Positions 24,458 to 25,273 of a DNA stretch of 64,000 nucleotides are shown here, piece by piece; the first letter of the stretch is position 1; each line of letters opens with the position of its first letter. The notes beneath the pieces are model-generated. The model was given only the letters and a program-made list of their open reading frames with translations. It did no database searches and had not been told where the DNA came from. The DNA is from Podarcis filfolensis (Eukaryota), in assembly GCA_964270895.1 (NCBI GenBank), contig OZ185436.1; one strand, given 5' to 3'. The position numbers and the translations under genes are program-made.

Positions 24458-25273
24458 TGTCAGAGCTACCCTAGGTCCCAGCTCACAAAGGACCAACGCT
24501 GCTTCGTTGTTAAGTACAAAAGTCTTTATTGAAGTTCAGTTTCACTTCCAAAGCCGCAGCGCGCAGCTCTGCGTCTTAACCCTTAGACCGCTGATGCTCT
24601 GTCTGAGTCTCCTCCCCCTTGACACCAATTTAAGATTCTAGCCTTGCTCCACCTTCTCCGCTGCTCCTTCCTCCTCTGGGTCCGCCTGCCCGCCGGGGTT
24701 CCGCCCTTTCTAGCCTCTTCTCCCGCTGATTCCCCTGAGCCTTCTCCCTCCCTCCGGTGGGCTTTAGGAGCTGGTTCCCCATCCGGGTCTCCTGCTGTCC
24801 CGCGCGCCTGCACATTTGAACTTGGCGCGCGCGCCCAGCCAGCAGCTTTCCTCCTGACCGTTTCACTGCTGCTGTCACTGCTTCCCCCTTCGGGGGGGCT
24901 AGCTGCAACTGACCTCCCTTCCGTTCCTCCACTCTCCGATGGAGGCGTGGTCAGCCCTGACTCCCTCTCTGGAGGAGACGCTGGCCCTGACACATGTGAC
25001 TCTTCCCCCCCACTACGCTCTGGTGGGGAAACTGGTCCCGATCCTCCACTGCTGTTTTGGGGTTCCCCTCTGGCTCCTTGTTTCTGGTGCATCCCCCCTG
25101 GGACCCCCCTTGCCCTAAGCATTGGCGCCCCCTTCTGGGAATCTTCTGATTCGCTGGAGAAGCTCATGGAATCTCTCGGGCCACTGTCATACTCCCCTAC
25201 GCTGCCCTCGGATTCTTCCCCTTCGCTCTCCAATTCCTCTCTCCCCATTGCTCCTGCTCCTGATTCCCTGACA
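24458..25273 (-). mobile_element. Solo LTR, 816 bp (Gypsy-, BEL- or ERVL-like), antisense in CAMK2A intron 9
   Basis: Termini TGTCAG...CTGACA, perfect 5-bp TSD GTAGT (24453-24457, 25274-25278), minus-strand AATAAA near 24525-24530, CpG-rich. Confidence 0.85.
24583..25248 (-). CDS. LTR-encoded 221-aa ORF: acidic Ser/Gly/Pro-rich region plus Arg-rich C-terminus; function unknown
   Basis: ATG in strong Kozak context (GCAATGG) 25 nt inside the LTR end, open to TAA at 24583-24585. Translation not demonstrated. Confidence 0.5.
   Translation of the reverse strand: MGREELESEGEESEGSVGEYDSGPRDSMSFSSESEDSQKGAPMLRARGVPGGMHQKQGARGEPQNSSGGSGPVSPPERSGGEESHVSGPASPPERESGLTTPPSESGGTEGRSVAASPPEGGSSDSSSETVRRKAAGWARAPSSNVQARGTAGDPDGEPAPKAHRREGEGSGESAGEEARKGGTPAGRRTQRRKEQRRRWSKARILNWCQGGGDSDRASAV

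Follow-up and report, generated by a model that had tools for sequence, protein, structure and literature searches.

A reading frame in a Podarcis solo LTR as the probable C-terminal tail of a Ty3/Gypsy Pol polyprotein

A solo LTR in an intron of a CaMKII gene

The window analysed here, a stretch of 64 kb of lizard DNA, contains a long terminal repeat (LTR) of the Ty3/Gypsy chromovirus type on the minus strand (24458..25273). The LTR is 816 bp long, opens with TGTCAG and closes with CTGACA, and is flanked by the target-site duplication GTAGT at 24453..24457 on the left and 25274..25278 on the right, both read from the sequence. Its AATAAA polyadenylation signal (24525..24530, minus strand) starts at LTR nucleotide 744. 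A tblastn search of the 64-kb window with three Pol proteins matched only the frame inside this LTR, the Pol internal region being absent from the window, and the LTR is therefore regarded as solo; a second LTR copy was not found in the window either. The only other frame of at least 200 codons in the window, a stop-to-stop frame of 206 codons on the minus strand (33775-34395), looks like intronic chance.

The LTR lies antisense within an intron of a CaMKII kinase gene, 26 nt ahead of a plus-strand exon (25300..25422) which matches CaMKII alpha with an E-value of 5e-23 and whose splice signals were read from the sequence. Between positions 25266 and 25299, the LTR end brings in the branch-point-like sequence CCCTGAC, whose A is 29 nt away from the exon and is closely followed by AG dinucleotides, while the upstream CTGAT has been displaced by 821 nt through the insertion. 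In carriers, the insertion could change the splicing of this exon.

Reads at the site were examined for four of the 24 listed runs (X3, X4, X5 and X10), a set that does not include the best-matching run. The empty site, seen as a joint that skips 821 bases (816 + 5), was present in X3, X4 and X5, while X10 had no flank coverage; X3 has the same organism label as the best-matching run. Since the empty site was seen in three runs, the insertion is likely to be young, and the CpG observed/expected ratio of the LTR (0.54, versus 0.23 for the window) is in line with this. Read depth over the LTR in X3, X4 and X5 is thousands of times the flank depth, which is not a copy number but shows that the LTR belongs to a repeat family. 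Runs X15-X20, possibly RNA and from two other organisms, contain 0.04 of the LTR words and may have related subfamilies.

The reading frame of the LTR and its continuity with Pol

Read from its first ATG, the minus-strand frame at 24583-25248 has 221 codons and occupies 666 of the 816 nt (82%) of the LTR. The ATG (25246..25248) lies at LTR nucleotide 26 in the context GCAATGG, and the frame ends with its stop at LTR nucleotide 691, AATAAA beginning 52 nt further on. These measurements agree with a first-pass annotation made from the sequence alone, which had described an 816-bp element with a GTAGT duplication on both sides, a strong-Kozak ATG opening 221 codons over about 80% of the LTR, and a stop some 55 nt before the AATAAA. 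The stop-free frame extends a further eight codons upstream of the ATG, to LTR nucleotide 2, so that it comprises 229 codons and a stop (24583..25272, minus strand), with the ATG as codon 9. Dinucleotide shuffling of the LTR produced a sense-strand ATG frame of at least 221 codons in 0.14% of 5000 trials (p 0.0014), and block-wise shuffling did so in 1.2% of 5000 (p 0.012); composition, therefore, aids such a frame but does not explain it. Tandem duplication as the source of the open frame was ruled out, the internal repeats of the LTR amounting to a single weak 22-nt pair. The opposite strand is also open over 246 codons (24623..25363, plus strand); the same annotation had cautioned of this, giving 239 codons. 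The plus-strand frame is a shadow of the coding frame: having third codon positions in common with it, the antisense frame remained open for at least 216 codons in 18.7% of 20000 codon-order shuffles. Pfam returned no match for either frame, and ESM Atlas no usable match to the 221-residue frame.

A search among proteins of similar length revealed five relatives, three of which, with 50-63% identity, have the greater part of the frame open, and a search among longer proteins added five more, namely four annotated Podarcis muralis Gypsy Pol proteins and one Logan protein. HMM comparison with Pfam detects, on the 1498 residues of P0010, the Ty3/Gypsy succession of protease, RT, RNase H, integrase and SH3 (GPY/F) module (RVP_2, RVT_1, RT_RNaseH, Integrase_H2C2 and rve, in that order, in both P0010 and P0012), and the best PDB match of a Pol relative is Ty3 Gag-Pol (E 1e-132). 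The SH3 module is followed by a degenerate chromodomain, about 150 acidic residues, a Gly-rich stretch corresponding to the polypurine tract, and the LTR tail, which in the Podarcis Pol proteins extends for 209-218 residues; some 360-370 residues lie beyond the chromodomain, of which 209-229 are LTR-encoded. The Pol residues past the Gly-rich stretch align with the window frame from LTR nucleotide 2. In tblastn, P0057 matches from position 25272 with 76% identity over 122 aa, and P0010 and P0050 match down to 24586.

The Pol tail is known here from proteins and one contig, not from full-length element DNA; most of the Pol sequences are automatic gene models, in which small introns may hide at frameshifts, and protein databases are biased to open frames. 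The contig, of 1384 nt and from Logan, encodes P0011, whose 415 residues cover the chromodomain through to the end of the tail, and as this span was called on a single contig there is little room for a hidden intron in it. In total, 58 proteins were compared, with 15 of 23 and 15 of 24 members included from the two largest clusters. Among the matches listed, 35 of the 58 possess the start of the chromodomain; 22 of these 35 enter the LTR start in frame, with 15 attaining the natural end and seven breaking within the tail. The other 13, again among the matches listed, fail to enter the LTR in frame, five through a frameshift at the G-run of the purine tract and eight by terminating sooner. G-run shifts occur also inside the chromodomain, and the breaks at the purine tract are for this reason likely to represent decay or assembly error.

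The ATG is not a fixed feature of these tails. P0057, the closest Pol, has Gln at the window's ATG codon, and the first Met of full-length tails is found at codon 9, 10, 14, 25, 36 or 140, depending on the subfamily, P0041 having none before codon 140. Given a frame that is continuous with Pol, the Gln of P0057 and the varying position of the first Met, we regard the ORF as a Pol tail and its ATG as incidental. Very likely, it represents the C-terminal tail that a lacertid Ty3/Gypsy element encodes in its LTR as part of the Pol polyprotein, the upstream part of which is gone in the solo LTR. The first-pass annotation had instead suggested a stand-alone, Sag/Nef-like accessory protein translated from the ATG, and had named the lack of an ATG in the family as evidence against it; the junction with Pol, and an ATG that is replaced by Gln in P0057 and is variable or absent elsewhere, do not support that suggestion.

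With a profile spanning chromodomain to tail, five proteins were found among 1.84 billion representatives, and with residues 330-813 of P0009 six among 8000 scored candidates; in both searches, all named matches are from Podarcis. A metagenome scan gave 304 pattern matches, none of which was confirmed. The Pol tail looks lineage-restricted, squamate repeats being sparse in the collections searched. Pol-tail proteins are already present in UniRef under an automatic name, and several Podarcis proteins held at NCBI as 'hypothetical' or 'uncharacterized' (P0005-P0008 and P0014) are retrotransposon tail pieces, not host genes.

Probable constraint and motifs in the tail

Across four Podarcis subfamilies, identity is 85-93% in the RT, RNase H, integrase and chromodomain, 51-63% in the acidic linker and 50-69% in the LTR tail; the tail evolves as fast as the linker. 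Tail length differences among these subfamilies are whole codons. Among six subfamily representatives, 56 of the 229 tail positions are invariant, and these cluster in an acidic serine block, SGP, RAPSSN, an EP.PKA.R stretch and a basic/helix motif.

Differences between copies were assessed on the best-supported 40 of the 91 analysed, 27 of which fall within the frame. On these best-supported differences, 13 of the 27 are synonymous and 14 are not, against an expected synonymous fraction of 0.29 (a modest p of 0.03, crude omega 0.45), and none introduces a new stop; the other two sense frames, scored on the same best 40 of 91, exhibit 2/27 and 8/27 synonymous differences and hence no excess. 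In residues 188-210, four of six differences (best 40 of 91) are synonymous, and the remaining two replace Arg by Lys and Ile by Val. The tail stop codon (24583..24585, minus strand) varies in sister copies solely among the three stop codons, through changes at 24583 and 24584 which do not co-occur, since their depths in X4 sum to the whole depth. Single-base indels are listed for the LTR's non-coding 3' portion, and a 9-base insertion lies within the frame. In one contig type, a +1/+7 pair (net +8) would disrupt the frame, and of seven internal deletions at low depth only two have a length divisible by three, which is what single copies in decay would be expected to show. Taken together, these comparisons make it quite likely that the Pol tail is under moderate constraint at the protein level. 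The dN/dS check on copies proposed in the first-pass annotation gave an excess of synonymous change (best 40 of 91), and its view that the frame is encoded and retained by the family, with a conserved basic motif, is supported across subfamilies at 50-69% identity.

Located at residues 31-42 within the 221-residue frame (25123..25158, minus strand), the acidic serine block, SSESEDSQKGAP, is invariant in the six subfamily representatives and likely contains CK2-type phosphorylation sites, as predicted from its residues. At residues 188-208 (24625..24687, minus strand), the sequence RRTQRRKEQRRRWSKARILNW combines a basic patch with a short amphipathic helix; this segment is kept in all full-length tails and is a candidate nuclear-localisation and docking motif. 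A Rev-like arginine motif had been noted here previously: the Arg-rich patch is indeed retained, but Rev itself was returned by no search, and the resemblance is one of composition. An export signal, which the earlier reading did not see, was not visible in the frame on reanalysis either. The TTAAAT inside the basic/helix motif changes synonymously in many copies (at 24628), and a TATA role is consequently not claimed for it. In the AlphaFold model of P0011, which is of low confidence (mean pLDDT 46.6) and leaves the chromodomain unfolded, the tail is disordered, with its sole helix on the W...W motif; another helix lies just past the chromodomain, before the FxGF linker.

Could the open frame be something other than a maintained Pol tail? 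Neutral read-through would require only that Pol lacks an early stop and runs on into the stop-poor, purine-rich U3 of a young family, the conserved blocks being promoter DNA elements. The T-poor composition, a block-shuffle p of only 0.012, the rapid divergence of the tail, the many broken copies and the empty sites marking young insertions are all compatible with this, but we consider it distinctly unlikely: among the sense frames a synonymous excess is confined to that of the tail (best 40 of 91), the stop is retained as three different codons, the frame is kept across subfamilies of 50-69% identity with several whole-codon indels, and the changes in the basic motif are conservative. A separate U3 gene in the manner of Sag or Nef, translated from an ATG of its own after splicing or internal initiation of the RNA, is still harder to credit and seems improbable. 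Most tails do possess a Met in their first 36 codons, and the ATG context in the window is good; the Met, however, moves between codons 9, 10, 14, 25 and 36 by subfamily and is missing before codon 140 in P0041, while the frame is open and conserved ahead of the ATG and joins Pol. MMTV Sag, lentiviral Nef and HIV Rev are separate genes with their own spliced RNAs and their own start. What the lizard frame has in common with them is coding inside U3 and an Arg-rich patch followed by Trp; in contrast to them, it is continuous with Pol and lacks a fixed ATG. None of the three came up in any search. As for the plus-strand frame of 246 codons, it is open and 11 of 24 differences within it are synonymous (best 40 of 91), yet the latter results from the third positions shared with the minus-strand frame; with 18.7% of the sense-frame codon shuffles also leaving it open, no Pfam match and only the minus-strand frame joining Pol, its being a real gene is exceedingly improbable.

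Relation to known elements and a proposed role for the tail

On its domain content, the element is a Ty3/Gypsy chromovirus with a degenerate chromodomain, and it probably falls in the Sushi/Amn V-clade, as judged by published descriptions. With that clade, as portrayed in PMC2774666 and PMC6317226, it shares the PR-RT-RH-IN order, the SH3/GPY-F module, a chromodomain after the integrase, a TG...CA LTR with AATAAA near its 3' end, a 5-bp duplication and a vertebrate host. It differs in the approximately 360-370 extra residues of Pol after the chromodomain, 209-229 of them in the LTR, and in the loss of the cage residues; furthermore, the U3 of Sushi is described as T-rich (PMC3601003), whereas that of the lizard LTR is purine-rich and T-poor.

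That Pol may read into the 3' LTR is already known in plants. In CRM group A, according to PMC3059260 and PMC3605345, the Pol frame passes through the polypurine tract and enters the 3' LTR, and that LTR codes for a conserved short CR motif thought to target integration, and some beet Bingo elements of the Galadriel type likewise extend into the LTR. The layout is alike, in that the Pol frame runs into the 3' LTR and the LTR part bears a conserved short motif. However, the CR motif replaces the chromodomain, whereas the lizard Pol keeps a degenerate chromodomain upstream and has the LTR part added. A profile search of 1.84 billion representatives found no sequence likeness to plant elements, and membership of CRM group A was rejected, a chromodomain being present and no CR likeness found; as clade and host are different, the resemblance is likely to be convergence. 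The integrase C-terminus of Ty1 and Ty5, as described in PMC7459421, is also poorly conserved; it bears a basic NLS together with a short motif that docks a host factor and thereby determines where insertion takes place. The lizard tail resembles it, by description, in being poorly conserved with a basic (candidate NLS) patch and short motifs; Ty1 and Ty5 belong to the Ty1/Copia superfamily, and their domain is not reported in PMC7459421 as LTR-encoded. Ty3 itself, according to bioRxiv 2021.07.27.453949, has a chromodomain without the cage, which binds a transcription factor instead.

The chromodomain of the lizard Pol matches Pfam Chromo with an E-value of 8e-5 at 22.9 bits, under the curated 25.1, and HP1-alpha with an E-value of 0.001; ESM Atlas places residues 1-120 of P0011 with chromodomain clusters at 0.85-0.86, a lead only. 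The HP1 cage Trp aligns to Lys in P0010, and the first aromatic is apparently absent, as read outside the printed alignment. With the cage Trp replaced, the domain is likely no reader of methylated H3K9. Shortly beyond it, in the Pol internal region and hence outside the window, 32 of 33 Pol proteins have a helix with Leu-Phe at its end, then a linker of 8 residues that is rich in Ser/Thr and devoid of Asp and Glu, and then FxGF, the 33rd protein ending at that point. The x (Gln, His or Arg) is the sole varying position of FxGF, acidic residues come after it, and the helix is predicted at residues 61-69 of P0011 (block pLDDT 63). This combination, a pattern picked after sight, occurred in 0.015% of 100000 shuffles. 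It recalls the anatomy of TND-interacting motifs (TIMs) as given in PMC9987994, i.e. an obligate helix, a linker of 8-16 residues charged by Asp/Glu or by CK2 phosphorylation, and FxGF, a requirement for LEDGF and HRP2, by which HIV is guided to transcribed genes (PMC9987994 and PMC10854676). Helix and FxGF are shared; the Pol linker, of 8 residues and rich in Ser/Thr, has no Asp/Glu, such that phosphorylation would be required, and the motif is a candidate ligand of LEDGF/HRP2. A PDB search with the TIM-like 30-mer produced only a chance citrate synthase match, and no solved TIM therefore backs the motif by sequence.

The C-terminal motifs of Ty1 and Ty5, the Ty3 chromodomain, the TIM-like anatomy, the lost cage Trp and the disordered tail lead us to propose an arm for import and docking. 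Pol would be translated through the 3' LTR of the genomic RNA, as the gene models and the one contig suggest, and the tail would be made only from that LTR. The integrase would then retain a disordered arm of 360 residues, whose basic patch may act as a nuclear localisation signal and drive import, while the acidic serine block, the terminal helix and the upstream helix-linker-FxGF may serve as phospho-regulated docking sites for host factors. Such short docking motifs might stand in for the chromodomain's lost methyl-lysine cage when insertion sites are chosen. We lean slightly towards this role of the tail as an integrase arm for nuclear import and targeting, and, taken as a whole, a Pol tail that forms a disordered arm on the integrase, serving import into the nucleus and docking to host chromatin factors, is probably the best explanation. 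Only tentatively do we go further, to a vertebrate Ty3/Gypsy lineage that may have lost heterochromatin reading by its chromodomain and gained a 360-residue, mostly LTR-encoded integrase arm, in which the candidate host-like TIM would tether to LEDGF/HRP2 and direct insertion into transcribed gene bodies, the LTR part providing nuclear import and phospho-switched docking. No protein is likely to come from the present solo copy, since the transcription start that belongs to an LTR lies downstream of its U3 and the host gene is read in the opposite direction.

Alternatively, the tail may be made within Pol and then cut off by the element's protease, acting as a free acidic/basic accessory protein such as an RNA chaperone or export factor, which is near the first-pass idea in function, though not in origin. 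The roughly 360 residues past the chromodomain are disordered in the AlphaFold model and could be cut, and the Arg-rich patch ahead of the helix could bind RNA. No cleavage site was found, however, nor is an export signal visible, and the precedents among LTR elements retain NLS and targeting motifs on the integrase; we therefore judge release of the tail unlikely, if worth keeping in mind.

In an LTR of which 85% is also Pol-coding, promoter, integration end and protein must evolve together. Each solo LTR of the family carries a ready frame of 220 codons, which gene finders call as a lizard gene. The choice of insertion sites by vertebrate Gypsy elements has been little studied, and a young family of high copy number offers candidate motifs along with many sites. 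Should the TIM-like motif bind LEDGF/HRP2, the element would be a retrotransposon that uses the HIV tethering factor via a different interface, and the targeting route of HIV would have been attained by short-motif mimicry. In the literature searched, we found no vertebrate Gypsy Pol covering most of an LTR and no work pairing 'TND-interacting motif' with 'retrotransposon'; Repbase, Dfam, GyDB and subscription papers lay outside this search and may note either. Lastly, P0009-P0057 contain another conserved stretch rich in Trp, in which a helix is predicted, about 30 residues past the FxGF motif.
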